Assembly: GCA_017458965.1 (NCBI GenBank)
Contig: JAFSZJ010000048.1
Coordinates: 1-48,636, forward strand
From: Kiritimatiellia bacterium
Lineage (GTDB): Bacteria > Verrucomicrobiota > Kiritimatiellia > RFP12 > JAAYLN01
Length of the DNA stretch: 48,636 nt
Direction: 5' to 3'
This document shows, in pieces, positions 4,808 through 45,927 of this stretch. Position numbers and translations under genes: made by a program. Every line of letters begins with the position of its first letter. Position 1 is the first letter of the stretch. The notes beneath the pieces were generated by a model. It was not told the origin of the DNA and ran no database searches. It was given only the letters and a program-made list of their open reading frames with translations.

Positions 4808-4823
4808 TGGTACGATTCGTGCT
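4808..4823 (+). promoter_or_regulatory. sigma54-type -24/-12 box (TGGTAC-N5-GTGCT); could alternatively be read as extended -10 TGgTACGAT
   Basis: GG-N10-GC spacing is kept. The box lies 37 nt upstream of ATG 4861 and aligns with three other boxes (17847, 28208 minus strand, 32055). Confidence 0.4.
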
Positions 4824-4860: not shown

Positions 4861-5598
4861 ATGGAAAAAGACGTAATCATCCGCACCGAAAACGTGAAGA
4901 AGCGCTATGTGACCGGCGAGGAGGTCCTATGGGCCCTCAAAGGCATCACGCTCGACATATATCGTGGCGAGTTCATCTCCATCATGGGGCCGTCCGGTTC
5001 CGGCAAATCGACATTCTTCAACCAGATCGGCGCGCTTGATTTCCCGACCGAGGGTCGCGTCCTTTTCGAGGGGCAGTCGATCTTCGACATGACCGAATCG
5101 CAGCAGGCGTGGTTCCGCTGCAACCGCATCGGCTACATCTTCCAGACGTTTAACCTCATACAGGTCATGAGCGCCCTCCAGAACGTCACGCTTCCGATGA
5201 CTTTCCAAGGCGTCTCACCCGAGGAGGCCGAGAAGAGAGGCATAGCCATTCTCGAGAAGGTCGGCTTAGGCCACCGCATCCACCACAAGCCTTTCGAACT
5301 CTCCGGCGGCCAGTGCCAGCGCGTCGCAGTGGCGCGTGCTCTTGCCAACACACCCTCCGTGATCCTGGCCGACGAGCCGACAGGCAACCTCGACACAAAG
5401 ACCGGAACCGAGATCATAGATCTCCTCAAGCAGCTTAACGTCGAGAGCGGCGTGACCGTCATCTGCTCGACGCACGACCCCAAGATGCTCCGTTCCTCGG
5501 ACCGTATCTGCTGGATGCTCGACGGCCAGCTCGACAAGATATCCACCGGCGCCGAGTTCAGCCTTGAGTCGATGAAGCAGGACACTCAGGGGCGGTAG
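4861..5598 (+). CDS. ABC transporter ATP-binding protein, MacB/LolD/FtsE-like, with no adjacent permease
   Basis: Walker A GPSGSGKST, signature LSGGQCQRV, Walker B ILADEPTGNLD, H-loop STHD. Clear paralog of the ATPase at 35446-36228. The upstream part of track ORF 4429-5598 is antisense to the phosphohexomutase gene and was discarded. Confidence 0.9.
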   Translation: MEKDVIIRTENVKKRYVTGEEVLWALKGITLDIYRGEFISIMGPSGSGKSTFFNQIGALDFPTEGRVLFEGQSIFDMTESQQAWFRCNRIGYIFQTFNLIQVMSALQNVTLPMTFQGVSPEEAEKRGIAILEKVGLGHRIHHKPFELSGGQCQRVAVARALANTPSVILADEPTGNLDTKTGTEIIDLLKQLNVESGVTVICSTHDPKMLRSSDRICWMLDGQLDKISTGAEFSLESMKQDTQGR

Positions 5599-5603
5599 AC
5601 CGG

Positions 5604-6107
5604 TTGAAGGGTGAAGGGTTGAAGGACCGTCTTTTCCTTTTGGTGACGTCCGGCTTCGGGCTTGGGCTTCTGCCAGGCGCCCCGGGCACATTCGGCGCCG
5701 TGGTCGGCCTCATCTGGCACCTTGCCGCATGGGCCGCCGGTTTCGGGGCGACGGCGATCCGCTTGTGGTGCCTCGCCGGCGTGATCCTTTTCCTGGTTCT
5801 TCACTACGCGCTGACGCCATGGGCGCAGAGATACTGGAACGAAAGCGACCCGAAGCACTACATCATAGACGAGATCCCCGGCTACCTGATGGTGCCCGTC
5901 CTGTCGCTGCCGGCGGTCCGGATAGAGCACATACTCCTTGGCTTCGTCATCGAACGCATCTGCGATATCATCAAGCTGCCGGTTGCGCGCTACTTCGACC
6001 GGAAGGTCCACAACGCCACAGGCGTCGTGATGGACGACATCATCGCCGGCATCTACGCGGCTGTCATTCTTTCGCTGGCAATTCGGTTCATACCGCCGCT
6101 TTTTTGA
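5604..6107 (+). CDS. pgpA: phosphatidylglycerophosphatase A
   Basis: 167 aa with PgpA motifs GFGLGLLPGAPGTFGAVVG, IIDEIPGY, DIIKLPVAR and DDIIAGIYAAV. TTG start (5604 or 5619), 5 nt after the ATPase stop. Confidence 0.85.
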   Translation: MKGEGLKDRLFLLVTSGFGLGLLPGAPGTFGAVVGLIWHLAAWAAGFGATAIRLWCLAGVILFLVLHYALTPWAQRYWNESDPKHYIIDEIPGYLMVPVLSLPAVRIEHILLGFVIERICDIIKLPVARYFDRKVHNATGVVMDDIIAGIYAAVILSLAIRFIPPLF

Positions 6108-9036: not shown

Positions 9037-9107
9037 CGTATAGGAAAAAGCATAACCCATGCCATGCCAGATGAAAACCCTCGCCGCGCCATATACACCC
9101 GGCGTTG

Positions 9108-9116
9108 TGGTACAAT
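9108..9116 (+). promoter_or_regulatory. candidate extended -10 promoter (TGgTACAAT) for the EPS operon
   Basis: TACAAT at 9111-9116 is preceded by TG at 9108-9109. Only 10 nt separate it from ATG 9127 and no SD is present, implying a leaderless or near-leaderless transcript. Confidence 0.4.
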
Positions 9117-9126
9117 TCACTGAACA

Positions 9127-10989: not shown

Positions 10990-10992
10990 GCC

Positions 10993-17843: not shown

Positions 17844-17846
17844 TTG

Positions 17847-17862
17847 TGGCATGGATTCTGCT
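17847..17862 (+). promoter_or_regulatory. sigma54-type -24/-12 box (TGGCAT-N5-CTGCT) upstream of moxR-DUF58
   Basis: GG-N10-GC spacing is kept. It starts 4 nt after the dxr stop and lies 35 nt upstream of ATG 17898. Flanks (TTGTGG...) resemble the 4808 box. Confidence 0.45.
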
Positions 17863-17897
17863 CATCCCGCCCTTATCAGCAAAGGCAGGATGAAAGA

Positions 17898-18908
<1,011 letters not shown>

Positions 18909-18920
18909 ACGGCTTCGGCG

Positions 18921-19847
18921 ATGCCCGACCTCGACTACATGCGCCTTCTGCCAGGCGAGACACTCAAGGCGATAGGTCGCCTTGAGCTGCTTGCCCGTAC
19001 ACCTAAGGAGGGATTCGTCACAGGGCACCACCGCAGCCCGAACAAAGGCTTTTCCGTAGAGTTCGCGGAGCATCGGCAATATGTGGCCGGTGACGACCTC
19101 CGCAAACTTGACTGGCGCGTCCTTGGCCGCACGGACAGGCTCTATGTGAAGGAGTTCGTCGAGGAGACGAACATGAGGGTGACTATCCTCGTGGACGCCT
19201 CCGGTTCGATGGGCTACGCAGGCGAGTCCGCCGCACGGCGCGACGACCGTCCGCTTTCAAAGTTCGAGTACGCTCGATACCTCGCGGCATCGCTTTCCTA
19301 CCTCCTTATTGGTCAGCAGGACGCCGTGGGCACCGTGCTTTTCGATTCGGGGATCCGTTCCTACATACCGGCGCGCGCACGCCCCAGCCAGCTGCGCATA
19401 CTTCTTGAGAATCTAGTCGCGGCCTCGCCCGGGGCAGACACCAACCTCGCGGATGTCTTCCATGACATCGCCGAACGCATCCCGCGGCGCGGCATGGTCA
19501 TCGTAATCAGCGACCTCTTCGACGACCCGGCCCGTCTTGCCAGCGCGCTGCACCACTTCCGCCACCGCCGCCATGAGGTGATCGTGATGCATGTGATGGC
19601 CGAGGAGGAGCTTACGCTTCCATTCGAGGACTTCTCCGAGTTCCGGGATCTTGAGGTCGCGGACAACCTCGTCCCGCTTGATCCGCGGACCATACGCGCC
19701 GCTTATCGCGACCAGGTTCGCGCCTTTCTCAAAGCCATCTCTACCGAATGCGGCCGGCTTTCAATCGACTATGTGCCGATGAACACGCGCCGTCCATACG
19801 AAACCGCAATCGCGGAATACCTACGCTCGCGCCACTCGCCCCGTTAG
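18921..19847 (+). CDS. DUF58 (vWA-like) protein, canonical MoxR partner
   Basis: 308 aa with the DDLRKLDWRVLGRTDRLYVKEF signature and VTILVDASGSM. Starts 12 nt after the moxR stop. Confidence 0.88.
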   Translation: MPDLDYMRLLPGETLKAIGRLELLARTPKEGFVTGHHRSPNKGFSVEFAEHRQYVAGDDLRKLDWRVLGRTDRLYVKEFVEETNMRVTILVDASGSMGYAGESAARRDDRPLSKFEYARYLAASLSYLLIGQQDAVGTVLFDSGIRSYIPARARPSQLRILLENLVAASPGADTNLADVFHDIAERIPRRGMVIVISDLFDDPARLASALHHFRHRRHEVIVMHVMAEEELTLPFEDFSEFRDLEVADNLVPLDPRTIRAAYRDQVRAFLKAISTECGRLSIDYVPMNTRRPYETAIAEYLRSRHSPR

Positions 19848-28804: not shown

Positions 28805-29890
28805 TCACCTGCGATCGGCGAGAAGGGCTACGGCAGCCTTGTACGTGCCGTGAGGCCCATAATACTCCCTTGGCACGGACATCGCCTCGTCAAGTGACGC
28901 AAACGCGCTTTCGGCCGTGGCTCGCAGCTCCGGGTGCATGACGGCTTCCTGGCGCAACCTCGACGCCGCCATGGCGGTAAGGGCAGCGTTGCCCTCGCGT
29001 GGCGCGTACCTGTCGTCCATCATGCCGCGGTAGTCGAACATCCCGCGACGACCTTCGCGGCGAAGCCATGCCATGCCGCGCCGGAGATGTCCGCCGCCAT
29101 CCGTCCATCCGGCATCTCGCGCCTTGAGGAGGATCGCCACCTGCCACAGCGTCATGGAGGCGTCCCCGCCACCCCACGACCCGGTGTTGTCCTGGCTGGC
29201 GAGCGAGAAGCCGATCGCCTTGCGGATCTCGTCCGAAATCCCAGCGCCATTTGAGGCGGCATGGCCGAGCAGCGCGAATGTCGCGAACGAATGGTTGTAG
29301 AGCGCGACGCGCGTAGAGCTACCGAACGCTCCGTCGTCCGACTGCATACTTAGCAGCGCCTGCTCGGCGCGGCATATGGACTTCTGGTGGCGAAGATGCG
29401 AATGCCGTTCAAGAGCCATCAGAGCAAGCGCCGTAAGGGCCGGTCTGTACACCTCGCGCCCGCCGGTGGCGGACGGAGACCAGGAACCGTCCGCGTCCTG
29501 CAGTTCCACGAGCCTGTCGGCGGCGACATCGGCCGCGCCATGGGGTGCGTTCCGGCCGCCAAGGGGCAAAGGCGGGGCCAACAGCGCGACAAGGCATGCG
29601 GCGACCCCGCATGCGACAGCCGCGACGCGGACGATGCGCCAGCGTCTTTCGACCGCTTCCCGACGGCGCTCCTCCCTGACGGCCGCCATGACGCGCCCGG
29701 CGAGTCCAGGGGAAGCCTCGCGCCATGTCTCCATGGCGGACAGGCGCTCCCGCATCGCCTCGATCCCGACGGCCTCCATCACTTCGTTCGTAAGCCCCGG
29801 AGACGGGGACACGGCACCGGCGGCGGCAAGGCGGCGGACCGCATTGGCCGTCACTTCGGGGAAATCATCGTCATTTGTCGATCCGCTCAT
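28805..29890 (-). CDS. single-pass membrane protein with prenyltransferase/squalene-cyclase-like repeats; putative anti-sigma factor by position
   Basis: ATG 29890 (TTG 29896), overlapping the sigma-factor stop by 20 nt. TM helix IVRVAAVACGVAACLVALLAPP. Repeats DADGSWSP, MQSDDGAFGS and QDNTGSWGGG. The N-terminal domain has no zf-HC2 motif, so the anti-sigma role is inferred only from gene order. Confidence 0.6.
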   Translation of the reverse strand: MSGSTNDDDFPEVTANAVRRLAAAGAVSPSPGLTNEVMEAVGIEAMRERLSAMETWREASPGLAGRVMAAVREERRREAVERRWRIVRVAAVACGVAACLVALLAPPLPLGGRNAPHGAADVAADRLVELQDADGSWSPSATGGREVYRPALTALALMALERHSHLRHQKSICRAEQALLSMQSDDGAFGSSTRVALYNHSFATFALLGHAASNGAGISDEIRKAIGFSLASQDNTGSWGGGDASMTLWQVAILLKARDAGWTDGGGHLRRGMAWLRREGRRGMFDYRGMMDDRYAPREGNAALTAMAASRLRQEAVMHPELRATAESAFASLDEAMSVPREYYGPHGTYKAAVALLADRR

Positions 29891-30437
29891 CGCCAAGTAT
29901 CCGTCTCAGGGCCTTCAGGGCATGGAACATCCGGGACTTAACAGTGCCGACGGGCACCCCCGTGATCTCCGCCACCTCCGCGTACGGAAGTTCCTGGAGC
30001 ACCCCCAGCACAACGACCTCCCTGTGGGCGTTGGAAAGCTTGCAAAGCGCGGCCTGCAAGTCGTCCGCCAGCCCGTCGTAGGGCGCCTCCGTGGACACCG
30101 GCTCTTCAACGCCTTCATCCGCCATTAGCCGCTCTCGCAGCACTTTGGCGCGGATGCGTTTCCGCACCTCGTCCACCCTGACCTGCCGCGCCAGAAGGTA
30201 TAGGAAGGTCGTGAACTTCGCCCTTGGCGAATACCTCTCGCGATAGCGGTAGAGCCTGACAAAGGTCTGCTGAACCAGATCCTCGGCATCGGTGTAAACG
30301 CCGGATCTCCTGAAAAAGTTCAAAAGGGGTGTCTGATGACGGACGACCAGCGCCTCGAACGACCTCATGTCGCCTTTCGCCGCCGCCATCATGAGCGCGG
30401 CATCGTCATCAGCAGGATCGTCGGATCGTTCAATCAT
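29871..30437 (-). CDS. ECF-type RNA polymerase sigma-70 family factor
   Basis: Region 2 is FEALVVRHQTPLLNFFRR...LVQQTFVRLYRYRERY. Region 4 is LPYAEVAEITGVPVGTVKSRMFHALKALR. ATG 30437 overlaps the scpB stop by 8 nt (the track start at 30449 is TTG). Confidence 0.88.
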   Translation of the reverse strand: MIERSDDPADDDAALMMAAAKGDMRSFEALVVRHQTPLLNFFRRSGVYTDAEDLVQQTFVRLYRYRERYSPRAKFTTFLYLLARQVRVDEVRKRIRAKVLRERLMADEGVEEPVSTEAPYDGLADDLQAALCKLSNAHREVVVLGVLQELPYAEVAEITGVPVGTVKSRMFHALKALRRILGDERIDK

Positions 30438-30461
30438 CGGATCGTTCAATCATCGGATCGT
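30421..30461. repeat. 16-bp tandem duplication (tcggatcgttcaatca x2, plus a 9-nt partial third copy) spanning the scpB stop and the sigma-factor start
   Basis: Copies at 30421-30436 and 30437-30452 are identical, and 30453-30461 repeats the first 9 nt. Both proteins therefore encode PMIERSDD. Confidence 0.9.
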
Positions 30462-31170: not shown

Positions 31171-31975
31171 CGCTCACCTCGTAATCGTCGCCGCCCTCGA
31201 TCACGGTGCCTGGCGGCGGTTGGCACACGAGTATCTCCGCGAATGGCTCGTTCTGGCGCACCGCCACGCGGTGGCGTTTCAGAAGTTCGAGAAGCGCGAG
31301 GAACGAGACGATCACCTCCCCGCGCGGGGAATCGGGCGCGAAGAGCCTGGAGAACGGCATTCCGCCCGGGTGTTCGGGGAGCGCCTCCTCGATGAGGTGC
31401 ATCTTCTCGGGGACGCTCCAGATTATCGGCTTGAGCTGCCCGAGCGGCATGACCGGCGCGCGCTTCAGCGCCTCCTGGAATGCGCCGAGGAGATCGAAGA
31501 GCCCGATGTCGGCAAGGCGGGGTGCCGTCTGGTCGGCATCGGAGAGGGCCACCTCGCCGCCGAAGAGATAGCGGTCGGACTGGGCGAACTCCTTCGCGCC
31601 AAGCGACATCGAAGCGTCCTTGAACTTCTTGTACTCGACGAGCTGGCGGACGAGCTCCATCCTCGGATCGTCCTCCTCCTCGTCCTCCTCCTCGCCCGGT
31701 CGGCTCTCGACCGGCAGAAGCGTCCTGCTCTTTATCAGCATCAGCGAGGAGGCCATCACAATGAACTCGCCCGCCACGTCGAGGTCGAGCATGCGCATCA
31801 TCTCCAGATACTCCATGTACTGGGAGGTTATGCGCTCGATGCTGATGTCGCAGATGTCCACCTCGTCCTTGCGCACGAGGTACAGCAAAAGATCAAGCGG
31901 CCCCTCGAACACATCGAGGTCCACCTTGTACTCCGCCTTTTCCGGCGCCTTTGTATCATTCGCCTCTTCGGACAT
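31163..31975 (-). CDS. scpA: segregation and condensation protein A
   Basis: 270 aa. FEGPLDLLLYLVRKDEVDICDISI near the N-terminus and EVIVSFLALLELLK near the C-terminus. Confidence 0.9.
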   Translation of the reverse strand: MSEEANDTKAPEKAEYKVDLDVFEGPLDLLLYLVRKDEVDICDISIERITSQYMEYLEMMRMLDLDVAGEFIVMASSLMLIKSRTLLPVESRPGEEEDEEEDDPRMELVRQLVEYKKFKDASMSLGAKEFAQSDRYLFGGEVALSDADQTAPRLADIGLFDLLGAFQEALKRAPVMPLGQLKPIIWSVPEKMHLIEEALPEHPGGMPFSRLFAPDSPRGEVIVSFLALLELLKRHRVAVRQNEPFAEILVCQPPPGTVIEGGDDYEVSDA

Positions 31976-31987
31976 GCGCTTTCAAGT

Positions 31988-31996
31988 AGGATACCA
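31988..31996 (-). promoter_or_regulatory. candidate extended -10 promoter (TGgTATCCT) for scpA
   Basis: Minus-strand sequence reads AATTGGTATCCT followed by 12 nt and then ATG 31975. Confidence 0.3.
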
Positions 31997-32054
31997 ATTC
32001 CCCGCCCTGTCGGACAAGCGCGGAATGAAAGCGGGCGTCGCAATCCTTGATTTC

Positions 32055-32070
32055 TGGCACACAATCTGCT
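32055..32070 (+). promoter_or_regulatory. sigma54-type -24/-12 box (TGGCAC-N5-CTGCT) upstream of the OPT-like/FtsX/ABC operon
   Basis: Best match in the window to TGGCAC-N5-TTGCW, with GG-N10-GC kept. It lies 41 nt upstream of ATG 32112. A TATACT hexamer at 32075-32080 allows an alternative sigma70 reading. Confidence 0.45.
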
Positions 32071-32111
32071 TGAATATACTGGAATGCGTTGCCAGTCCAA
32101 AGGCGGCGCCC

Positions 32112-34346
32112 ATGTCAGGATTTACCCGGAGCCAAGAGATGGCAAGAGCCAAAGCAGACAAGGAACTCGAGCAATACCGCAACCTGCTCGACACGCCAAG
32201 CAAGTTCGAGGACGGATTCGGCTGGACGACGATAGCCGGCATCCTGTTCTGCGGCCTCATCATGACGCCTGGCGCGATCTACCTCGGCCTCATGACCGGT
32301 GGCAACATCGCGTCCGCCGCGACTTGGGTGACGGTCATCCTATTCAGCGAGATCACCCGCCGCGCCCTCAAGACGATGACGAAGGGCAACCTCATCGTCC
32401 TGCTCTACGCGGCCGGCATCATCATGGGCTACGCCGCCATGGGGCCGGCCGGTTCGCTCGTCAACCGCGCGTACCTCGTCACCTCCGACGCCGCGCGCGA
32501 CATGGGCATGCGCGACTACTTCCCGACATGGTGGTGCCCGAAGCCCGACAGCCCCGCCATCACCGAGCGCAACCTCTTCCACCACGACTGGCTCATACCC
32601 GCCCTCATCATCGCCTTCTCGTACGTGACCAGCGTGATCAACCGCTACACGATCGGCTACTTCTTCTTCCGCCTCTGCTCCGACGTCGAGCGGCTCCCCT
32701 TCCCCATGGCGCCGATTTCCGCGCAGGGATCGCTCGCCCTCGCCGAATCGACCATGAAGCCCGAGGACCTCGAGAAGCAGGAGGCCGAACTCGATGAGGA
32801 GGGTCACAAGCCTCTCCCAAAGTGGCGCATCTTCTCGCTCGGCGCACTGATCGGCATAGCCTTCGGCTTCGTCCAGGTCGGCGTCCCGGCGATCACCGGC
32901 CTCTTCCTCGACCAGCCGATCTTCCTCATCCCGCAGCCGTACCTCGACACGACGACGATGACCGAGGCCATCCTCCCCGCCACACCGACAGGCGTCATCA
33001 TCGACCCGGGCATCATCATCACCGGCATGGTCCTGCCATTCTGGGCGATCATGGGTTCCTTTGCAGCGATCCTCGTTACGCTGATCGTCAACCCGATCCT
33101 CCACGCCTCGGAGATCCTCGTCCAGTGGCAGCCAGGCATGAACACCGTCAACGCCACGTTCGTCAACTCCATCGACTTCTGGATGTCCTTCGGCTTCGGC
33201 ACCTCGGCCGCAATCGCCGTCATTTCGGTCTTCTCGACCGTCCGCGACGTCATCCGCCGCGGCATCGAGGCGCGGAAACAGGCAGGCACGGCGATGTCGG
33301 CGCTCAGCGAGCGCGACCGCGCCGTCGGCTCCCTCTGGAAGACTCCTGACGTCGGGCGCGGCGACTGGCCGATCTGGCTTTGCATAGTCGGCTACGTCAT
33401 ATCGTCGACGGCCATGGTCTGGCTCTGCAACCACCTCATCCCGGGCATCCTCGGCTTCCTTATCTTCTTCGTCTGCTTCTACAACCCCTTCATCTCCTAT
33501 GTCAACGCCCGTCTAACGGGCCTCACCGGCCAGGCGGTCGCCATCCCGTTCGTCCGTGAAGGCTGCTTCATCCTCTCCGGCTACAACAAGCTCGACATCT
33601 GGCTCGCGCCGGTGCCCATCACCGACTACGGCGGAATGGCGCAGGGCCTCCGCATCAACGAGCTCACCGGCGTCAAGTTCCGCTCCATGGTCTTCGCCGA
33701 CCTCGTGGCCGTCCCGACCGCCTTCATCCTCTCCTTCTTCTTCTGGGGCTTCATCTGGAAGGCCAACGCCATCCCGTCCGACATCTACCCGGCGGCCCAG
33801 CTCAACTGGGAGCTCGCGGCCAAATCGACGACCCTCCTCTACTCGGCCACATTCCACCCGGAGAGCGAGAACGGGCAGGATGTGCAGGATGTCCAGGATG
33901 TCCAGAATGTCCAGAATGTCCAAGACGCCCAGGGTGCCCAGGCCGTTCATGAGGAGGCGGCCAGGGATGATGGCAGGGCGAGCATGACGGAGTCGATGAA
34001 CCGCTTCGCGGACACGGAGTTCGCCAAGGCGCTCCATCCCAAGGTCATCGGCGTAGCCGCGGCGCTCACGACGATCCTGTTCATAGTCTTTTCGTCCTTC
34101 GGTCTTCCGACGCTATTCATCTACGGCATGATCCGAGGCTTCGGCGCCCTGCCACACGGCATGGTGCTTGAGATAATCGGCGCCTTCCTCGGCCGCTGGT
34201 ACTTCCAGAAGAAGTTCGGCAAGAAGAACTTCCTCCGCAGCGCACCGGCAGTCGCCGCCGGCTATGCCACGGGCGTAGGCCTCATCGGCATGCTCACGAT
34301 CGCGATGACGCTCATCAAGAACGCCGTCTCAAGCGCTCCATTCTGA
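32112..34346 (+). CDS. large polytopic membrane protein, OPT-superfamily-like, family not recognised
   Basis: About 740 aa with many hydrophobic helices. The N-terminal helix pair GWTTIAGILFCGLIMTPGAIYLGLMTGGNIASAATWVTVILFSEI recalls OPT transporters. ATG 32112, or ATG 32139 with GGAG 7 nt upstream. The 31620-32111 part of the track ORF is antisense to scpA and was discarded. Confidence 0.8.
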   Translation: MSGFTRSQEMARAKADKELEQYRNLLDTPSKFEDGFGWTTIAGILFCGLIMTPGAIYLGLMTGGNIASAATWVTVILFSEITRRALKTMTKGNLIVLLYAAGIIMGYAAMGPAGSLVNRAYLVTSDAARDMGMRDYFPTWWCPKPDSPAITERNLFHHDWLIPALIIAFSYVTSVINRYTIGYFFFRLCSDVERLPFPMAPISAQGSLALAESTMKPEDLEKQEAELDEEGHKPLPKWRIFSLGALIGIAFGFVQVGVPAITGLFLDQPIFLIPQPYLDTTTMTEAILPATPTGVIIDPGIIITGMVLPFWAIMGSFAAILVTLIVNPILHASEILVQWQPGMNTVNATFVNSIDFWMSFGFGTSAAIAVISVFSTVRDVIRRGIEARKQAGTAMSALSERDRAVGSLWKTPDVGRGDWPIWLCIVGYVISSTAMVWLCNHLIPGILGFLIFFVCFYNPFISYVNARLTGLTGQAVAIPFVREGCFILSGYNKLDIWLAPVPITDYGGMAQGLRINELTGVKFRSMVFADLVAVPTAFILSFFFWGFIWKANAIPSDIYPAAQLNWELAAKSTTLLYSATFHPESENGQDVQDVQDVQNVQNVQDAQGAQAVHEEAARDDGRASMTESMNRFADTEFAKALHPKVIGVAAALTTILFIVFSSFGLPTLFIYGMIRGFGALPHGMVLEIIGAFLGRWYFQKKFGKKNFLRSAPAVAAGYATGVGLIGMLTIAMTLIKNAVSSAPF
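33876..33947 (+). repeat. in-frame 9-nt tandem repeat (caggatgtc and variants, about 8 units) encoding QDV/QNV/QDA repeats
   Basis: Sequence reads caggatgtg caggatgtc caggatgtc cagaatgtc cagaatgtc caagacgcc cagggtgcc caggccgtt, within a hydrophilic loop of the OPT-like protein. Confidence 0.9.
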
Positions 34347-34360
34347 TCCGGACACACATC

Positions 34361-35431
34361 ATGAACCAGCAATCCGACAGAACCAGGATCCCAGACCAGG
34401 TCCGACTTCCATTGTCCGTCGCCTTCGGCGTCGTCATCCAGGGTCTCCGCATACGAATCGGCCGTTCGGTCGTCACCATCACCGGCGTGACGTGCGGCAT
34501 CGCGTTCCTCATGTCGATCCTCACTGGCCAACTCGTGAAGATGGGCGTCACGGACGAGGATGCCACGCGCGCCGAGGTGGGGCGCGTCATCTCCTTCGTC
34601 CGCTCCGACCTCCCCAAGCTCCAGGACAAGTCGATCTCCGTCGTGGGGTCCGGGACGCTCAGCGAGGTCGAGACGCGTGTCCTCGAGACGATATCACGCG
34701 ACTTCGGCATAGCCTCGCTCTCATTCGAGCAGGGCAAGTCCCCAGCCCTCCCGCGCAAGGCGTCGGCCGCTGTGTCCGCCGCCGCTTCCGCGCCATCGGC
34801 CTCGGTGGCCAATGCCGACGTTGTGTTCCTCATGGGTGGCTCGGACATCCCGCGGCAAGACTGGAAACCATTCCTCGACGGCGACCTCAACCGCGTCATA
34901 GCATCTACGATCCTCGAGGCCGACGCGTCGACCGTCGGAATCGCGGAGGAGCGCTTCGCCAAGCTGGCCCGAGTCCTTACCGAGGAGGAGCTGGCGAAGA
35001 TTGAGAAGAACAAGCGCAAGGAGCGCTTCCGCGCCATATGGATCGGGGTCATCTCGCTTCTCGTCACCGTCATCGGCATCACGAACGCGATGCTCATGTC
35101 CGTGACGGAGCGCTTCCGCGAGATCGGCACGATGAAGTGCCTCGGCGCCCTCTCCTCCTTCGTGACGCGCATGTTCGTCATGGAGGCGTCGCTGATGGGC
35201 CTTGTCGGCGGCATCGCCGGCGCGATCTTCGGCGCTCTCTTCGCCATAATCATCTACACCTTCACCTACGGCGCGAACCTGGTATTCAGCTCGCTGCCAA
35301 TGGTGTCAGTGCTCATATTCGGGCTGCTGTCGGTCGCGGCGGGCGTGGTGCTCTCCGTCGTCGCCGCCCTCTACCCGGCCCGCGTCGCGGCCTCCATGGT
35401 CCCGGCCACGGCTCTCCGTTCAACGATCTAG
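34361..35431 (+). CDS. FtsX/MacB-type ABC permease (4 TM, ~170-aa loop between TM1 and TM2)
   Basis: 356 aa. TM1 VVTITGVTCGIAFLMSIL. FtsX domain ITNAMLMSVTERFREIGTMKCLGA...LYPARVAASMVPATALR. Starts 14 nt after the upstream stop. Confidence 0.88.
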   Translation: MNQQSDRTRIPDQVRLPLSVAFGVVIQGLRIRIGRSVVTITGVTCGIAFLMSILTGQLVKMGVTDEDATRAEVGRVISFVRSDLPKLQDKSISVVGSGTLSEVETRVLETISRDFGIASLSFEQGKSPALPRKASAAVSAAASAPSASVANADVVFLMGGSDIPRQDWKPFLDGDLNRVIASTILEADASTVGIAEERFAKLARVLTEEELAKIEKNKRKERFRAIWIGVISLLVTVIGITNAMLMSVTERFREIGTMKCLGALSSFVTRMFVMEASLMGLVGGIAGAIFGALFAIIIYTFTYGANLVFSSLPMVSVLIFGLLSVAAGVVLSVVAALYPARVAASMVPATALRSTI

Positions 35432-35445
35432 ACGAGGTTACCGCA

Positions 35446-36228
35446 GTGCAGAACCTGGACAGGAAGAAGTTCGACGCCCTCTTCGAGAAGCCGGCCGGCG
35501 ACGAGAAGTCCGTCATCATCCGCGGCGTGGACATCCACAAGGTCTACAAGATGGGCAAGCAGGAGACGCACGCCCTGCGCGGAGCCACGCTCGACGTCTA
35601 TCGCGGCGAGTACCTCTCAATCATGGGTCCGTCGGGCTCCGGCAAATCGACGCTCTTCAACGCCATCGGCGCCCTCCAGAAGCCGACGAGCGGACGCGTG
35701 TACATCGACCAGGTCGATATCGCGCAGCTCGATACCGAGGAGCTCGCCTGGCTGCGCTGCCGCAAGATCGGCTACGTATTCCAGAGCTACAACCTCATCC
35801 AGGTGATGACCTGCCTTGAGAACGTCACGCTCCCGATGTCGTTCGCCGGCCTGTCCTCCGAGGAGGCGCGCGAGAAGGGCATCAAGATCCTCAAGATGGT
35901 CGGTCTCGGCCACCGCATCCTCCACAAGCCGGCCGAACTCTCCGGCGGACAGCAGCAGCGCGTGGCCGTCGCCCGCGCCCTCGCCAACTCGCCCGACATC
36001 ATCCTCGCGGACGAGCCGACGGCCAACCTCGACCAGCACACCGGCCAGGAGATCATCGAGCTCTTCCAGCAGCTCCAGCGCGACCTCGGCGTGACGATCA
36101 TCTCCGCCACGCATGATACAAAGATGCTCAAGGCGTCCGACCGCATCCTCTGGATCGAGGACGGCCGCATCGTCAAGTGCGCCCGCCCGGAGGAGATCGA
36201 CTTCACATCCAGCGAGTTCGGCCACTAG
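35446..36228 (+). CDS. ABC transporter ATP-binding protein (MacB/LolD/FtsE-like)
   Basis: GTG 35446 (GAGG 8 nt upstream); no in-frame ATG precedes the conserved domain. Walker A GPSGSGKST, signature LSGGQQQRV, Walker B ILADEPTANLD, H-loop ATHD. Confidence 0.9.
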   Translation: MQNLDRKKFDALFEKPAGDEKSVIIRGVDIHKVYKMGKQETHALRGATLDVYRGEYLSIMGPSGSGKSTLFNAIGALQKPTSGRVYIDQVDIAQLDTEELAWLRCRKIGYVFQSYNLIQVMTCLENVTLPMSFAGLSSEEAREKGIKILKMVGLGHRILHKPAELSGGQQQRVAVARALANSPDIILADEPTANLDQHTGQEIIELFQQLQRDLGVTIISATHDTKMLKASDRILWIEDGRIVKCARPEEIDFTSSEFGH

Positions 36229-36324
36229 TCCGCTGAACGGGTTGCCGAGCGCAAGGCCAATCCTGGCGCCTCCTAGGCGCAGCCACCATGGGATATCAGG
36301 TGGTTTCCTGCAAGGAATACGCGC

Positions 36325-36353
36325 TTGCAACTCGTTCAATGAAATGCTATCAT
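36325..36353 (+). promoter_or_regulatory. sigma70-type promoter TTGCAA-N17-TATCAT upstream of hisG
   Basis: TTGCAA at 36325-36330 and TATCAT at 36348-36353, in a locally AT-rich stretch 26 nt upstream of ATG 36380. Confidence 0.45.
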
Positions 36354-36379
36354 CATCAAACATTACGCTTGGAAAAGAT

Positions 36380-37252
36380 ATGGCGTCACTCGTTCTAGGT
36401 CTGCCGAAGGGCAGTTTGCAGGAAGCCACCTTCGCAATGATGCGCAAGGCTGGGTTCAACCTTTCCGTGTCTTCGCGCAGCTACATCCCGACGTGCGACG
36501 ACGAGGATCTCAAATGCCGTCTCCTCCGTCCGCAGGAGATACCGCGATATGTGGAATTGGGGCTTCTCGATTCCGGAATCACCGGCTACGACTGGATCTA
36601 CGAGAACAACGCCGACGTCGTTGAGGTGTGCGAGCTCTGCTACTCCAAGGCCACCTCGCGCCCAGTCCGCTGGGTCATCGCCGTCCCCAACGACTCCCCC
36701 ATCCAGTCCGTCAAGGACCTGGAAGGCAAGCGCATATCCTCGGAGGCCGTCGGTCTCACGCGGCGCTACCTCGAGGCCAACGGCGTCAATGCCGACGTCG
36801 AGTTCTCCTGGGGCGCGACCGAGGTCAAGGCCCCCGAGCTCGTGGACGCCATCGTCGATCTTACGGAGACCGGCTCATCCCTCCGCGCCAACAACCTGCG
36901 GATCCTCGCCACGATCCTCACGTCCACCACGCGTCTCATAGCCAACAAGACCGCATGGGAGGACGCCGACAAGCGCGCCAAGCTCGAGCAGATCGCCATG
37001 CTCATGACGGGCGCCCTCCAGGCGGAGTCGCGCGTCCTGCTCAAGATGAACGTCGGTTCCGCCAACCTTGGCAAGGTCATCGAGATCCTGCCTGCTCTTC
37101 ACACACCTACGGTCAACGCGCTTGACGCGGATGGCTGGCATGCGGTGGAGTCCGTCGTGGAGGAGTCCAAGGTCAGGGAGCTGGTCCCGCGCCTCAAGGC
37201 GGCGGGGGCCGAAGGGCTGATTGAACTTCCGCTCAACAAGATCATTTTCTGA
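36380..37252 (+). CDS. hisG: ATP phosphoribosyltransferase (long form)
   Basis: Start reassigned to ATG 36380. Motifs MASLVLGLPKGSLQEATFAMMRKAGF, RPQEIPRYVELGLLDSGITGYDW and LTETGSSLRANNL. About 290 aa including a C-terminal regulatory domain. Confidence 0.9.
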   Translation: MASLVLGLPKGSLQEATFAMMRKAGFNLSVSSRSYIPTCDDEDLKCRLLRPQEIPRYVELGLLDSGITGYDWIYENNADVVEVCELCYSKATSRPVRWVIAVPNDSPIQSVKDLEGKRISSEAVGLTRRYLEANGVNADVEFSWGATEVKAPELVDAIVDLTETGSSLRANNLRILATILTSTTRLIANKTAWEDADKRAKLEQIAMLMTGALQAESRVLLKMNVGSANLGKVIEILPALHTPTVNALDADGWHAVESVVEESKVRELVPRLKAAGAEGLIELPLNKIIF

Positions 37253-41559: not shown

Positions 41560-41589
41560 CGTAGGCGTTGCGCCGCTGCGCAACGCCTA
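41560..41589. terminator. perfect 13-bp stem / 4-nt loop hairpin between convergent genes (no U-tract)
   Basis: gtaggcgttgcgc-cgct-gcgcaacgcctac. The 3' arm contains the stop codon of the minus-strand 1446-aa gene, and the hairpin begins 44 nt after the U32 stop. Confidence 0.5.
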
Positions 41590-44500
41590 CTTCACTATGA
41601 ACATTGTCGGCTGGATGACGTCGTCGCTGCGGACCGTGAGCACGCCGGATCCGGTGAAGAGGTCGTCGCGGACGAACTCTGCGCTCGATTCCGACGAGCC
41701 ATACGTGCCGCGCACGAGGCTCTGCCACTCGGGCGTTTCCGGGTAGTCGCGGACGTAGAGCTTCTTGCACGAAGCCGTCACGCCGGACGGCAGCTCGACC
41801 TTTCCAAACCAGCCCGCTGCGCCGTCGAGCTTCAGGACATTTCCCGTCGTCGAGTCCCCGTTGGGGAGGCTGAGCGTCGCGTTCGCGAAGACGCGGATCG
41901 GCAGGTTCTTCGCGAGCGAACAGGCGTGGGTCGCGTCGCCAAGCGCCAGCGTGCCGGCGTTGACGGCGATTTCGTCCGCGATGTTCGTCTGGCTCCCGCC
42001 GAGCGTCAGGTAGCCCGTGTAGGCCGCGACGAAGCCGCCGGGCGCCGTGACGTCCGCCCAGATCTGGTTCGGAGTCGAGGCGCTGCCGGACTTGGCGAAG
42101 ACGTAGCCGGGATGCGTCGCGTCGCCAAGGACGAGCGAGCCGTTGTCCGTGCGACCGGGCTGGCCGATGGAGGACTTGCTGTTGTGCAGGAGGAGCCCGC
42201 CGGACGTGAGCGTGAGCGTACGCCCTTCGCCGAGCCACTTGTTCTTGTTCTCGTTGTAGAGATAGAGCGAGTTGAGCGTGACGTCATCGCCGATCTGAAT
42301 CGTCTTGTCCCACACGTAGGCGTTGGACTTATCGCTCGCCGCGGCGTCGAGCGCCGTGTTGTTGTAAACAGGGCGGATCAGGCGGTCGTCTGCGTCGAAG
42401 CAGGCGAAGAGCGGATAGCGGTTCCAGTCGTCGTCCCATGCCGTGATGGGCGCGACCATCCACGGGACGATCGGGTAAACGTCGGACTGCTCCGGATCTC
42501 CCTCGGCGCCGACGAGGTAGGCGGAGACGCCGTGCAGGATCGTGACCTCGTTGGTCAACGTCGCGGTGGAGGCGAGGCTCGAGCGCGACTGGTCAACGAT
42601 GCGGATCGTCGCCTTGTCGCCGTGGACGAGCTTGTCCACCTCGAGCCAGTTGATCGCGTTGTCGCCGCCATGGCCGACAATGTTGTTCAGGCCGCCCTCG
42701 ACCGTGAGGCGCTTCGTGTGTCGCAGGTCTTTGACACCGCCGGCGGCGCCGGCGCCCCACGCGCCGTTCTGGTTCGGATGGCGAACCACGGTGCCGCCGT
42801 GGAGCAGGACGGCGCGGGGGAACCAGTTCGTCCCGGGGTGCTTGGGTTCCGAGCCGTAGCCGTGGTTCCAGCCGACCTTCAGGGCGCCGGCAGTGTCCCA
42901 GCCCCAGTCCGTGCGGGGCGCCCCGCCGTTCCGGGAGACCTGTCCTACCACCTCGACCGCGAGGTTCGTGCAGGTTTCGGTGCGGAAGTAGATCGGGCCG
43001 CTGCGGTCGTTGCTGTCGTTCGAGTAGCCGCCGGAGTCGCGGATCGTGCCGGTGAAGTTCTCCAGACTGCTGTCCCAGCGCATCGTGCCGCTGGAGCGGT
43101 TCCAGAAGACGCCGTTGCCCTCCAGCCGTCCGGGCCACATCGTGGCGCCCATGCTGTTGCCCGTCCGGTCGAAGTTCACGACGGAGACCGTCACGTTCGT
43201 CGGGATGATGTGCGTATTGGCGTTCACCGAGAAGCGGCCGCGGCAGTTCGTGTTGGCCGAGCCGTCCCAGCCGGCGTCCAGCACCGTGTCCGAGCGGTAT
43301 TCGGTGTGGTGCTCGTAGCCGCCGAACGTGAGCTCGTTCTGGCGGCTCTCGGTCGTGTTCGCGCAGACCCGGACGACGACCGGCTCGCCGTCCGTGCGCT
43401 CGAAGAACACCGTCTTCAGGGTGGAGTTCTTGTGCCGCTCGAGGACGAGCTTGTCGTTCGTCGTGTCGAGGAACTGGCCGTAGTAGAGTCCGCCGACCGT
43501 GACGTCCTCCGTGAGCCGGAGGTATTTGCCGCCGGTGTATTGGTAGAACGGGATCACCGCGATGTCGTCCGCGTTCTTCGGCCAGGAGTCGTTCGACTCG
43601 GAACCGACCTTCTCCCACGCGGCGGCGCTCGTCCAGATGCGGTCGCCCGTGGCGACCGTCTCCTGGTAGATATAGATTGAGCCGTCGCCGATCGCCTCGG
43701 GGAGGACGATCACCGCGAGCGTGTTCTGCGCTCCGGCGGTGTCGATGCACTTCACGCCGACGATGCCGGGCTCGAGCGCGGTAAGGACGTTGCCGTCGAG
43801 CGAGAGGAAGCGCCCGTTCATCACCGTGTAGGAGGCGGTGCCGGCCAGTTCGGGGAGCGTCGCCACGTCGCCCACGTGCAGCCGCAGGGCGGTGGCGGAG
43901 GAGACGTGGTCGGAAACGGACGAAACGGACACGGCGGCGGAACCGGGCGTGACGGGTATCGTCCACGTCTTCGTGTAGGTCGCGCCGCCCGCGTCGGCCG
44001 TCACGGTCACGGTCGCCGTCGCCGCGCCGGACGCGGCGGCGACGCCGGTCCAGGAAAGAGTTTGGGCGGACGTGAAGTTCTTCGCGTCGAGCGTCCGGCC
44101 GTCGTAGACGAGCGTCGCGCTGCACGAGGCGCCGTCGAAAACCTCCGTGACGCCGAAGGTCAGGTCGACGGTCGAATTGTCGGCCGCGAACGAATAGCCG
44201 ATGCCCGTTGCGGCGATTGGCACGTCGCGCGTTTGGTAGGAGCCGTCGAGCGGAACGTAGGTAACAAGCCCCCACTCGTTCACGATGCGCAGACGCAGAT
44301 AGTATGACGTGTCAGGCGTAAGGCCAGGGACGGTGTAGTTCGCGGGCGTGTCAAGCATGGCGGCGGCTTCGGACGACGCGGCGGCGAGCGTCGCGAAATA
44401 GGACGACGTCGAAGCCTCGACTCGCGCCGTGGCGGACTCGGATCCCGTGCCGAAGTCGGAAACGGTCGCGGACGCCGTGAGCGTCGTGAAGCCGCGCGAA

Positions 44501-45927
44501 TGGAACAGGATCGAACCGGCCGGGGGCTGGGGATCGCGCGTAGTGAAGGCGGCAACGCCAGACTCGCCGGCCACGCCGAACGAATTCGTCACCTGGAGCT
44601 GCGCGTAGTAGGTCGTGTTCGTCGCGAGCGGAACGACCGGGACGGAAATCGTCGCGGGGGCCGCCAAGACACGGGAGAGCGGAAGGACGTAGAGGGGGGC
44701 GGAAAGGTCGGCGTTCGTGCTCACGACAAGGCGCGGATCGACCCAGCTCGCGTCCGTCACCATCAGATCGTCCATGCCGAGCGAGCCAATGGTCGCAGTG
44801 AGCGTCGCGTTCGTGTAGAGGACGGCGGACGACGGCGCGACGAGGCCCGCCTCGGGCGCGGCGGACGCCTCATACGCCTCGGCCGCGCCGGCCGTGAGGA
44901 ACGTCGGATCGCTCTGCGTCGCGTAGTCCGCGGCGATCCAGTCGGCGGAACGGACCGTGGGGGAGAGCCGGTATTCGTCGATGAGGCCGACGAAACCCTG
45001 GTCGTTGCCCCACTGGTTGCGGGCCAGCCACATTTCGATCGAGCCTGTCTTGTTATTGATCCCCCCCGTGTTCTGCTCCGTCTTGAGGACGCCGTCCATG
45101 TAGTGCTTGGCGCCGAGCGACGTGTTTGGGATGAACGAGAGGGCGAAGTAATGCCACTCGTTCGCGGTGGTGATGAAGTTGCCCACGTTGCCGTAGTCGG
45201 CAACGGCCGGCGTCGTGATCTTGACGGCATTCCCTTCCATGCGGTAGGAGATGAAGCCGCTCTTGCCGAAGAGCGCCTGGTTGCCGGACAAGGCCGCGAT
45301 GTTGACCCAGCCCTCGATCGTGTAGCCGTTCGCGGTGAGTTCGGATTCCTCCTGCGAGGAGCCGCACGAAACGTAGGAGGACTTGTTCGGATACGACAGG
45401 CCGGAGCCGACGACGCCTGTCGTGAGCGCGACGTTGCCGAATGCCGTGCCGTCGTTGCCGGAGCCGGAGGCGTCCGCAGGCGAGGTCGCGTTCATGTGCC
45501 AGACGCCCTTGTAGCCCGCGAAGGGGTTGTCGGCGCAGACGGTCTTGCCGCTCGTCGCGGAACCCCAGCACATGACGAACTGCGTCCCCTGCTCCATCGA
45601 GGGGAGCTTTACCCAGACGAACGACGTGCCCTCCGGGTTCCACGTGTCGATCTCGAACGGCAGGCCGTTGCCGGCGGTGTCGATGAAGCAGATGTCCGCG
45701 CCGTCGGAGGGCGACAGAAGCTGCGAGTAGGCGAAGCCGGACGGCGAGTCGTCCGCGATCCGCACGAGGATCGGGAAGTCAGCGAGCGCAGACTTGGACG
45801 AGTCATAGCCGGTGACTTCGAACTGCGCGCCACGAGCGAACGAGGCGGCGGTCGGCCGCGGCAGCGCGGATGAATGAAGTGCGCAAAGCGCACCAAGCGC
45901 CAATGCGGCAAGAACTGAGTTTCTCAT
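41587..45927 (-). CDS. giant secreted surface protein: DUF2341 + LamG-like + Ig-like repeats + autotransporter-associated beta-strand (PATR) repeats
   Basis: 1446 aa. Signal peptide MRNSVLAALALGALCALHSSA. DUF2341-like block FPILVRI...ICFIDTAGNGLPFEIDTWNPEGTSFVWVKLP. LamG-like block GNDGTAFGNV...GYTIEGWV. PATR-like blocks AYTGYLTLGGSQ and VNAGTLALGD. AAGGGGA lies upstream of the ATG. Confidence 0.85.
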   Translation of the reverse strand: MRNSVLAALALGALCALHSSALPRPTAASFARGAQFEVTGYDSSKSALADFPILVRIADDSPSGFAYSQLLSPSDGADICFIDTAGNGLPFEIDTWNPEGTSFVWVKLPSMEQGTQFVMCWGSATSGKTVCADNPFAGYKGVWHMNATSPADASGSGNDGTAFGNVALTTGVVGSGLSYPNKSSYVSCGSSQEESELTANGYTIEGWVNIAALSGNQALFGKSGFISYRMEGNAVKITTPAVADYGNVGNFITTANEWHYFALSFIPNTSLGAKHYMDGVLKTEQNTGGINNKTGSIEMWLARNQWGNDQGFVGLIDEYRLSPTVRSADWIAADYATQSDPTFLTAGAAEAYEASAAPEAGLVAPSSAVLYTNATLTATIGSLGMDDLMVTDASWVDPRLVVSTNADLSAPLYVLPLSRVLAAPATISVPVVPLATNTTYYAQLQVTNSFGVAGESGVAAFTTRDPQPPAGSILFHSRGFTTLTASATVSDFGTGSESATARVEASTSSYFATLAAASSEAAAMLDTPANYTVPGLTPDTSYYLRLRIVNEWGLVTYVPLDGSYQTRDVPIAATGIGYSFAADNSTVDLTFGVTEVFDGASCSATLVYDGRTLDAKNFTSAQTLSWTGVAAASGAATATVTVTADAGGATYTKTWTIPVTPGSAAVSVSSVSDHVSSATALRLHVGDVATLPELAGTASYTVMNGRFLSLDGNVLTALEPGIVGVKCIDTAGAQNTLAVIVLPEAIGDGSIYIYQETVATGDRIWTSAAAWEKVGSESNDSWPKNADDIAVIPFYQYTGGKYLRLTEDVTVGGLYYGQFLDTTNDKLVLERHKNSTLKTVFFERTDGEPVVVRVCANTTESRQNELTFGGYEHHTEYRSDTVLDAGWDGSANTNCRGRFSVNANTHIIPTNVTVSVVNFDRTGNSMGATMWPGRLEGNGVFWNRSSGTMRWDSSLENFTGTIRDSGGYSNDSNDRSGPIYFRTETCTNLAVEVVGQVSRNGGAPRTDWGWDTAGALKVGWNHGYGSEPKHPGTNWFPRAVLLHGGTVVRHPNQNGAWGAGAAGGVKDLRHTKRLTVEGGLNNIVGHGGDNAINWLEVDKLVHGDKATIRIVDQSRSSLASTATLTNEVTILHGVSAYLVGAEGDPEQSDVYPIVPWMVAPITAWDDDWNRYPLFACFDADDRLIRPVYNNTALDAAASDKSNAYVWDKTIQIGDDVTLNSLYLYNENKNKWLGEGRTLTLTSGGLLLHNSKSSIGQPGRTDNGSLVLGDATHPGYVFAKSGSASTPNQIWADVTAPGGFVAAYTGYLTLGGSQTNIADEIAVNAGTLALGDATHACSLAKNLPIRVFANATLSLPNGDSTTGNVLKLDGAAGWFGKVELPSGVTASCKKLYVRDYPETPEWQSLVRGTYGSSESSAEFVRDDLFTGSGVLTVRSDDVIQPTMFIVK

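Follow-up and report, generated by a model that had tools for sequence, protein, structure and literature searches.

A divergent OPT-fold protein encoded with a type VII ABC system in a Kiritimatiellae contig: probable fragment of a conserved, undescribed envelope module

The 48,636-nucleotide (nt) contig JAFSZJ010000048.1 (assembly GCA_017458965.1), referred to here in its full length as the window, belongs to a metagenome-assembled genome (MAG) of the Kiritimatiellae. It encodes, in three consecutive open reading frames (ORFs), a polytopic membrane protein (ORF1), an FtsX/MacB-type permease (ORF2) and an ATP-binding cassette (ABC) ATPase (ORF3), and a second ABC ATPase at some distance from them. 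It is probable that ORF1, ORF2 and ORF3 form a sigma-54-dependent operon and represent the local fragment of a conserved, undescribed envelope module. Judged from sequence and gene order, the best reading of this module is that a type VII ABC mechanotransducer of heteromeric composition works in functional coupling with OPT-fold permeases. The window is the whole contig, and absences from it reported below are absences from these 48.6 kb.

Six-frame ORFs were searched in 80 genome loci that contain relatives of ORF1 (designated below by ‘L' numbers). The loci comprised 58 of a PVC type (Kiritimatiellia, Lentisphaerae, Verrucomicrobiota, Planctomycetota, Armatimonadota and Sumerlaeota) and 22 of a Desulfobacterota type, and the denominators of the linkage counts are the PVC-type loci with enough flanking sequence. 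An ORF2 orthologue lies directly downstream of the ORF1 homologue, on the same strand, in 51 of 55 loci and elsewhere in the locus in two more. At least one ATPase gene is found downstream of the ORF1 homologue in 45 of 47 loci, and two ATPase genes in 37 of 42. A protein of ∼1,700 amino acids (aa), termed the giant permease here, is encoded immediately upstream of the ORF1 homologue (37/42), and a DUF6785/DUF6784-like polytopic protein further upstream (32/39). In the 22 Desulfobacterota-type loci the giant permease, then the DUF6785/6784 protein, also precede the ORF1 homologue, the order in L087 and L088 being small FtsX permease, one ATPase, giant permease, DUF6785/6784 protein and ORF1-like protein. 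All six genes are present in a Myxococcota contig (L086), where stop and start codons overlap, as they also do in L087, while in two Phycisphaeraceae loci (L048 and L050) the partner genes are on the opposite strand yet still adjacent.

All-against-all clustering of the 80 loci detected no further family in more than seven loci, apart from one cluster of reverse-strand ORFs (45 loci) that was taken to represent antisense frames over ORF1; in L002, for example, the reverse ORF at 5880-8543 overlaps ORF1 at 5934-8045. The absence of any other recurrent family supports the view that the module is a self-contained unit. These sequence data point to a five- to six-gene envelope module that is conserved in at least six bacterial phyla, with occurrences in Kiritimatiellia, Lentisphaerae, Verrucomicrobiota, Planctomycetota, Armatimonadota, Sumerlaeota, Myxococcota and Desulfobacterota. 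In close Kiritimatiellal relatives the order is activator, ORF1, FtsX permease, ATPase ‘a' and ATPase ‘b', with no giant permease nearby. The original prediction, which was made from the letters of the window, described a three-gene system with a single FtsX permease. Its triad is indeed syntenic across PVC and other genomes and survives the changes in gene order seen in L048, L050 and L086-L088. The conserved unit, however, contains two FtsX-type permeases, one or two ATPases and the DUF6785/DUF6784 protein, and the triad is therefore a fragment rather than the system.

ORF1 has no match in Pfam at E≤1, including PF03169, or in NCBIfam. A word-indexed search returned more than 1,424 homologues, and an exhaustive search of 1.84 billion cluster representatives with the ORF1 family profile gave 1,023 matches without reaching the canonical OPTs. 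The profile matches the iron-phytosiderophore transporter YS1 of barley (HvYS1) by sequence (E 8.8e-6), and the AlphaFold model of ORF1 (predicted local distance difference test (pLDDT) 72) retrieved only HvYS1 (7wst/7wsr) when compared with the PDB by Foldseek, with E 1.9e-10, a TM of 0.53-0.65 and ∼750 aligned columns extending over the whole length. In addition, three more distant members of the family (P0423, P0449 and P0343) pass the gathering score of PF03169 (25.8), scoring 29-34 bits over nearly the full profile. The match of the profile to HvYS1, the match of the model to the same protein and the distant members that pass PF03169 together tie ORF1 to the OPT/YSL superfamily. A string search of ORF1 found none of NPG, KIPPR and IPPR; NPG and KIPPR are conserved OPT motifs according to Koh et al. 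2002, in the form in which that work is cited in PMC3061005. ORF1 is predicted from its model to be a divergent OPT/YSL-fold protein and not a typical member, which agrees with its initial description as polytopic, OPT-like and outside any named family.

Relative to the OPT/YSL proteins (PF03169, TC 2.A.67; HvYS1, PDB 7WSR/7WST), ORF1 is thus alike in fold but differs in lacking the PF03169 match and the NPG and KIPPR motifs. Unlike described OPTs, moreover, members of the ORF1 family nearly always have a type VII ABC system encoded next to them; a 2011 survey of the OPT family reports no such ABC context and no PVC members. ORF1 also contains a 9-nt tandem repeat that encodes a (Q-D/N-V)n low-complexity insert. 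The insert lies in a loop of pLDDT <50 and is one unit shorter in another sample (L092, 732 aa versus 735 aa). It sits at an insertion hotspot of the family, near profile position 576, at which other members bear a PDZ, a WD40, a Reg_prop propeller or an FGE-sulfatase-like domain. The hydropathy topology of ORF1 is too crude to assign this variable loop to one side of the membrane.

A functional link between the OPT-like protein and the type VII ABC genes, which the original prediction had proposed as a partnership, is well supported by synteny, in that ORF2 adjacency (51/55), ATPase linkage (45/47) and association under altered gene orders all point the same way. ORF1 may be the physical partner of the ABC proteins or a substrate-handling subunit. 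A different explanation, which we regard as unlikely, is that the two parts are co-regulated but independent, ORF1 being a proton-driven OPT-type importer of peptides or metal chelates and the ABC proteins a MacB-like exporter or extractor, linked only through a shared substrate cycle, for example one in which a peptide or metallophore is secreted and then taken up again. Export of peptides and siderophores is a known function of MacB-type pumps, and some ORF1-family proteins score above the OPT cut-off of Pfam. In the window the second ATPase has already become separated from the operon, so tight co-translation is not required, and OPT/YSL proteins are able to function without ABC partners (PMC3061005; HvYS1 structures). 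Against such independence, the adjacency is near-universal over at least six phyla and several gene orders, which is stronger than usual for transporters that are merely co-regulated, and the stop/start overlaps in L086 and L087 suggest co-assembly. Furthermore, the 80 loci contain no conserved biosynthetic, membrane-fusion or outer-membrane genes near the module.

ORF2 matches FtsX in Pfam (E 3e-16). Its model (pLDDT 84) contains four transmembrane (TM) helices and displays, in order, an N-terminal amphipathic helix, TM1, a stalk, a Rossmann-like periplasmic domain of ∼115 aa, a second stalk and TM2-TM4. TM1 continues into the first long stalk as a helix spanning residues 33-83, the domain occupies residues 91-201, and a helix at 208-255 links the second stalk to TM2, followed by TM3 and TM4. 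The TM1-TM2 loop (approximately residues 59-225, 167 aa) is modelled as β-α-β-α-β-α-β-α-β, with pLDDT ∼85-93, and is carried on the two stalk helices. Foldseek comparison of the membrane part retrieved MacB, YtrF, LolCDE and FtsX, and that of the loop only weak matches to Rossmann-like enzymes. Consistent with this partition, sequence matches of the ORF2 profile in the PDB (MacB, YtrF, LolF, LolE, LolC and FtsX) are confined to profile positions 207-346, and the loop gave neither a MacB_PCD match in Pfam nor a PDB sequence match to the periplasmic domains of MacB, Lol or FtsX proteins. The periplasmic loop of ORF2 is predicted from the model to be a Rossmann-like α/β domain and not the MacB core (Porter/Sabre) domain. 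The view that ORF2 is a four-TM FtsX permease with an α/β loop unlike MacB or FtsX ectodomains was accordingly upheld by the Pfam match, the model and the null loop searches.

Alignment of the ORF2 family revealed an invariant motif, SVTERFREIGTMKCLGAL, in the coupling loop between TM2 and TM3. The Desulfobacterota-type orthologues (L087 8437-9159 and L088 8414-9121) are 235-240 aa in length, have a short loop without the α/β domain and retain the invariant coupling-loop motif (TERFREIGTMKCLGAL). Comparison of these sequences shows the α/β loop to be a lineage-specific elaboration and not a core feature of the permease.

ORF3 matches ABC_tran in Pfam (E 8e-34), and its translation contains intact Walker A (GPSGSGKST), signature (LSGGQQQR) and Walker B (IILADEPT) motifs. 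The best NCBIfam models are LolD, MacB, DevA and FtsE, every cut-off being missed. ORF3 is predicted to be an ATPase of the LolD/MacB/FtsE class, as befits the cognate ATPase that it had been taken to be, and shares 96% identity with the L081 orthologue and 75% with that of Myxococcota L086. The second ATPase was found by tblastn, through 85.6% identity to the second ATPase of L003, and displays 93% identity to its L081 orthologue and 60% to ORF3. In relatives this clade ‘b' gene directly follows the ORF3 orthologue, whereas here it is 27 kb away. Both clades can also be told apart in Myxococcota (75% and 65% identity), and the module thus contains two ancient ATPase paralogue clades. Because the two ATPases are equally well conserved, the system probably still requires both of them and hence a second permease, which is probably encoded elsewhere in the genome. 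The relocated gene adjoins a phosphoglucomutase-family gene (3370-4719, minus strand) and a BatA/VWA/CARDB/PA14 gene (6088-9144, minus strand); the former was considered as a possible activator gene and rejected on account of its family. A weak, tentative sigma-54-like box upstream of the relocated ATPase has the string TGCTTGA in common with the box of ORF1.

The giant permeases (∼1600-1770 aa; Table 1), which are encoded in related loci and not in the window, begin with a signal anchor, followed by a PA/M28-like ectodomain and another long stretch of ectodomain; then come additional TM helices, a MacB-type permease and, at the C-terminus, a domain of ∼170 aa. The MacB-type part gives a MacB_PCD match in some of the proteins. 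In profile searches the ectodomain, which totals ∼950 residues, matched PA-domain aminopeptidases (E 1e-19), the transferrin receptor (E 6e-9) and nicastrin (E 2e-7). An active peptidase was considered and rejected, as 40 of 46 sequences have tyrosine in place of the first zinc-ligand histidine and the catalytic pair Glu-Glu has disappeared. The protein is a conserved pseudo-peptidase, the ectodomain of which is most plausibly a binding domain. A catalytically dead PA/M28 ectodomain is common to the giant permease, nicastrin and the transferrin receptor, but in the giant permease, which has lost the zinc ligand and the catalytic glutamates, it is fused to a bacterial MacB-type permease, and a receptor role is suggested by analogy only. 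Database entries name these proteins only ‘FtsX-like permease family protein', ‘M28 family peptidase' or ‘hypothetical', and in NCBIfam they yield only generic FtsX matches, with no match for DUF6785 or for a Desulfobacterota ORF1 homologue. A defence system was also rejected, since PADLOC gave no match for ORF1 or DUF6785 and elsewhere only generic ABC or FtsX similarities. The PADLOC model ‘CARF_m8--CARF_LolE_TM' matches residues 996-1553 of the L003 giant permease, its membrane region (E 7e-30), which suggests that the membrane architecture of the giant permease is LolE-like and shared with a family of candidate CRISPR-associated effectors.

The DUF6785 + DUF6784 polytopic proteins, the remaining usual members of the module, have no match in the PDB. 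Aligned to the ORF1 family by hhalign, DUF6785 gives a weak match (probability 13%, E 0.002) that covers 438 collinear columns and includes a common E-x-x-FP motif, and the protein may be a remote OPT-like paralogue. In a variant module, in L085 (17014-20187), the ORF1-like gene is separated from those of the small FtsX permease and ATPase by genes for a 320-aa, a PqqD-like and a 221-aa protein, and there is no DUF6785 upstream. PqqD-like genes also occur in the vicinity of the module in L088 and of the window-type loci L089 and L090.

ORF2, ORF3 and the second ATPase are assigned to a type VII (MacB/LolCDE/FtsEX-like) ABC system on the basis of their sequences and models, namely the Pfam FtsX and ABC_tran matches, the LolD/MacB/FtsE class of the ATPases, the modelled stalk helices and periplasmic domain, and the fold and sequence matches in the PDB. 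With LolCDE the module has in common two different FtsX-type permeases, LolD-class ATPases and a membrane domain that is similar in both sequence and fold. The LolCDE equivalog scores are nevertheless well below the NCBIfam cut-offs (lolCE, 48.4 versus 362; LolD, 228.5 versus 307.75 bits), and the module differs in possessing the ∼1,700-aa giant with its dead PA/M28 domain and extra TM helices, two ATPase paralogues in many lineages, OPT-fold partners in place of LolA, and sigma-54 control. MacAB-TolC resembles the module in the four-TM FtsX fold, the long stalk helices, the presence of a periplasmic domain, the MacB-class ATPase and, for some giants, MacB_PCD. In the module, however, the ORF2 domain is Rossmann-like and not of the Porter/Sabre kind, the ATPase is a separate polypeptide and no MacA-like or TolC-like gene is conserved. 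FtsEX scores similarly fall short (FtsX_Gneg, 27 versus 255; FtsE, 204 versus 264.85; NCBIfam equivalogs). FtsEX-EnvC and YbbAP-TesA are alike in that a type VII motor acts through dedicated partner proteins and not as a classical transporter, but their partners are soluble periplasmic activators or hydrolases, in contrast to the polytopic OPT-fold membrane proteins of the module. Overall, the ABC core represents a type VII ABC system in which the set of partners is new.

The likeness to LolCDE and YbbAP-TesA raises the question of whether the module is an envelope-biogenesis or membrane-extraction machine, moving a lipid-anchored or hydrophobic component out of the inner membrane, with the OPT-fold proteins as scaffolds or flippase-like elements and not as peptide transporters. 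Among curated ATPase models LolD comes closest, the permease is similar to LolC, LolE and LolF, the two different FtsX-type permeases recall the LolC/LolE heterodimer and the sampled Gram-negative phyla contain the module; extraction of membrane compounds by type VII systems has precedent (PMC12646458). Several observations nonetheless render this improbable. The Lol equivalog cut-offs are widely missed, sigma-54 control by activator genes implies conditional and not housekeeping expression, the 80 loci contain no conserved LolA/LolB-like or hydrolase gene nearby, and the inactive PA/M28 ectodomain, like the PDZ insert, favours peptide or protein ligands.

The sigma-54 box upstream of ORF1, TGGCACacaatCTGCT, has the correct GG-N10-GC spacing. 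Sequences that match such a box with at most one mismatch number three in the window against 1.14 expected, a total that 11 of 100 shuffles also reach, and the box at 32055 is not significant by window statistics alone. Of the three, only this box lies between genes and precedes one; the other two are intragenic. Equivalent boxes precede the ORF1 orthologues by 84-109 nt in L001 (TGGCACaaatcTTGCT), L081 (TGGCACacatcTTGCT), and L083 and L005 (both TGGCATgttttCTGCT), and only seven such plus-strand matches occur across the 1.02 Mb of fetched loci. The box was accepted because of its position and its conservation in relatives and not because of its frequency in the window. The claim that the best sigma54-type box in the window precedes the three genes is therefore retained in so far as the box is present, is the sole intergenic match and is kept in four relatives, but is not significant by its frequency in the window. 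In the relatives that bear the box (L001, L081, L083 and L005), an activator gene with FHA, Sigma54_activat and HTH_8 domains is located directly upstream of the module, accompanied in L081 by a Ser/Thr kinase gene. In one Desulfobacterota-type locus, a histidine kinase and an NtrC-type sigma-54 regulator precede the module. Scans of 31900-36500 for sigma-70 promoters and terminators returned only chance-level matches, and an Rfam scan of the window at gathering thresholds detected no RNA elements.

The regulatory genes that adjoin the module in some lineages would also fit an ABC part that acts as a BceAB-like sensor or regulator, controlling the OPT-fold permeases without handling substrate. 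Type VII ABC systems such as FtsEX and BceAB can be pure signal transmitters (PMC7668044 and PMC11627006). This explanation is nevertheless very improbable, as no histidine kinase is consistently linked to the module among the 80 loci, the ∼950-residue ectodomain of the giant permease exceeds what a sensor would be expected to need, and two dedicated ATPase paralogues are kept.

In the preferred reading, a type VII mechanotransducer coupled to OPT-fold permeases, the ORF2-type and giant FtsX permeases would form a LolC/LolE-like heterodimer driven by the ATPase pair. Binding and hydrolysis of ATP by the two ATPases would generate a movement that is passed through the invariant TM2-TM3 coupling loop to the stalk helices and periplasmic domains, a mechanotransmission like that of MacB and LolCDE. 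The periplasmic domains would then take up a ligand or let it go, either in the periplasm or on the surface of the membrane, and the OPT-fold protein or proteins would provide the route by which it crosses the cytoplasmic membrane. A peptide-like ligand is probable, as suggested by the dead aminopeptidase/nicastrin-like ectodomain, the PDZ insert in one member of the ORF1 family, sigma-54 control and the substrates of OPT proteins. Sigma-54 control often goes with nitrogen scavenging. The OPT superfamily transports peptides and metal chelates (PMC3061005). A more specific version can be put forward only tentatively: a new class of hybrid envelope machine in which the type VII ABC motor physically gates or energises the OPT-fold permeases, ORF1 and the possibly related DUF6785/6784 protein, with the nicastrin-like ectodomain as the ligand receptor. 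Such a machine would formally resemble energy-coupling factor (ECF) transporters in its two different ATPases, its coupling subunits and its separate substrate-specific membrane proteins, although the folds are unrelated.

A number of observations weigh against the preferred reading. The 48.6-kb contig lacks the giant permease, DUF6785 and any sigma-54 activator gene, and the local system may be incomplete or work differently. The upstream giant permease is also lacking in five of the 42 PVC-type loci, and in L022 (Nitrospirales) ORF1 is followed by a different, type I-like ABC protein. The ORF2 loop domain, absent from the Desulfobacterota-type orthologues, cannot be indispensable to a common mechanism. 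The best 150 ORF1-family representatives include no gene fusion, the 80 loci have no conserved membrane-fusion (MacA-like) or outer-membrane (TolC-like) partner nearby, and all of the hints as to substrate are indirect.

The three genes themselves are real. They are co-directional and separated by gaps of 14 nt (ORF1/ORF2) and 14 nt (ORF2/ORF3), exactly as first reported; the coordinates required only slight correction, position 32055 being the first base of the sigma-54 box and not of a gene. Two ATG codons could start ORF1, at 32112 (744 aa) or 32139 (735 aa), in a frame that closes at 34346. The latter is likely the genuine start because it agrees with homologue N-termini (consensus MAxxKxDKELEQYRNLL), has GGAG 8 nt before it and is used in the 735-aa calls of independent assemblies. 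ORF2 is 100% identical to an NCBI entry named ‘ABC transporter permease [Kiritimatiellae bacterium]'. The order scpA (on the opposite strand), ORF1, ORF2, ORF3 and hisG was found in at least seven independent metagenome assemblies and is therefore not an assembly artefact. L094, the initial 1.2 kb of which mismatches the window, was set aside as a chimera or variant.

Table 1. Positions of the module genes and associated elements in the window, with examples of partner proteins from related loci.
Feature	Locus	Position	Strand	Description
Sigma-54 (-24/-12) promoter box TGGCACacaatCTGCT	Window	32055..32070	+	84 nt upstream of ORF1 start; read from sequence
ORF1	Window	32139..34346	+	735-aa polytopic membrane protein, predicted divergent OPT/YSL-fold permease; no Pfam/NCBIfam model for the family
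9-nt tandem repeat, 7.4 copies	Window	33876..33942	+	Encodes the (Q-D/N-V)n low-complexity insert in an ORF1 loop; TRF score 78
ORF2	Window	34361..35431	+	356-aa FtsX/MacB-type (type VII ABC) permease
ORF3	Window	35446..36228	+	260-aa ABC ATPase, GTG start at 35446; paralogue clade ‘a' of the module
Second ABC ATPase	Window	4861..5598	+	245 aa; paralogue clade ‘b'; 27 kb from ORF1-3
Tentative weak sigma-54-like box TGGTACgattcGTGCT	Window	4808..4823	+	∼40 nt upstream of the relocated ATPase; two mismatches to consensus
Giant permease	L003	1901-6988		∼1600-1770 aa
Giant permease	L054	1690-7002		∼1600-1770 aa
Giant permease	L062	3-4775		∼1600-1770 aa
Giant permease	L086	10001-15223		∼1600-1770 aa
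DUF6785 + DUF6784 protein	L074	5009-6985		Polytopic; usual module member
DUF6785 + DUF6784 protein	L062	4691-6772		Polytopic; usual module member
DUF6785 + DUF6784 protein	L086	7426-9999		Polytopic; usual module member

Other parts of the window carry further genes of note. A polysaccharide-biosynthesis cluster at 9127-14618 (plus strand), which has a strong negative AT skew (-0.16), encodes a Polysacc_synt_2 dehydratase, a fusion of exosortase EpsH with DUF3485 (EpsI-like) at 10993-12699 and a family 4 glycosyltransferase. The gene at 6088-9144 that adjoins the relocated ATPase specifies a 1018-aa BatA-VWA-CARDB-PA14 protein, and genes for a MoxR-type AAA_3 ATPase and DUF58/VWA proteins are found at 17844-19847 (plus strand); a MoxR gene is also present near the module in L081, probably by coincidence. 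At 28805-30449 (minus strand) a gene for an extracytoplasmic function sigma factor overlaps that of a 363-aa putative anti-sigma protein with a weak squalene-hopene-cyclase-like repeat domain. Located ahead of scpB and scpA, this pair is transcribed divergently from ORF1. The 1446-aa protein encoded at 41587-45927 (minus strand), which contains DUF2341 and Laminin_G_3, is likely a large surface or secreted protein.

A literature search found no paper that links OPT-type proteins with FtsX or MacB systems and none that mentions DUF6785 or DUF6784, and no curated family or source name for the linkage was encountered, in keeping with the earlier impression that the arrangement is unlike described systems. 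Type VII ABC systems are known from few examples (MacAB, LolCDE, FtsEX, BceAB and YbbAP), each of which represents a distinct use of cytoplasmic ATP outside the membrane. The module described here adds a widespread combination of a type VII motor, OPT-fold proteins and a giant pseudo-peptidase permease for which no curated family, name or paper was found. The cultured bacteria Halodesulfovibrio aestuarii DSM 17919 and Desulfacinum hydrothermale DSM 13146 have members of the ORF1 family, so that experiments on the question are feasible. If its parts form one complex, the module would represent a new partner class for mechanotransmission, and ORF1 would be the first OPT-fold protein to work with an ABC motor.

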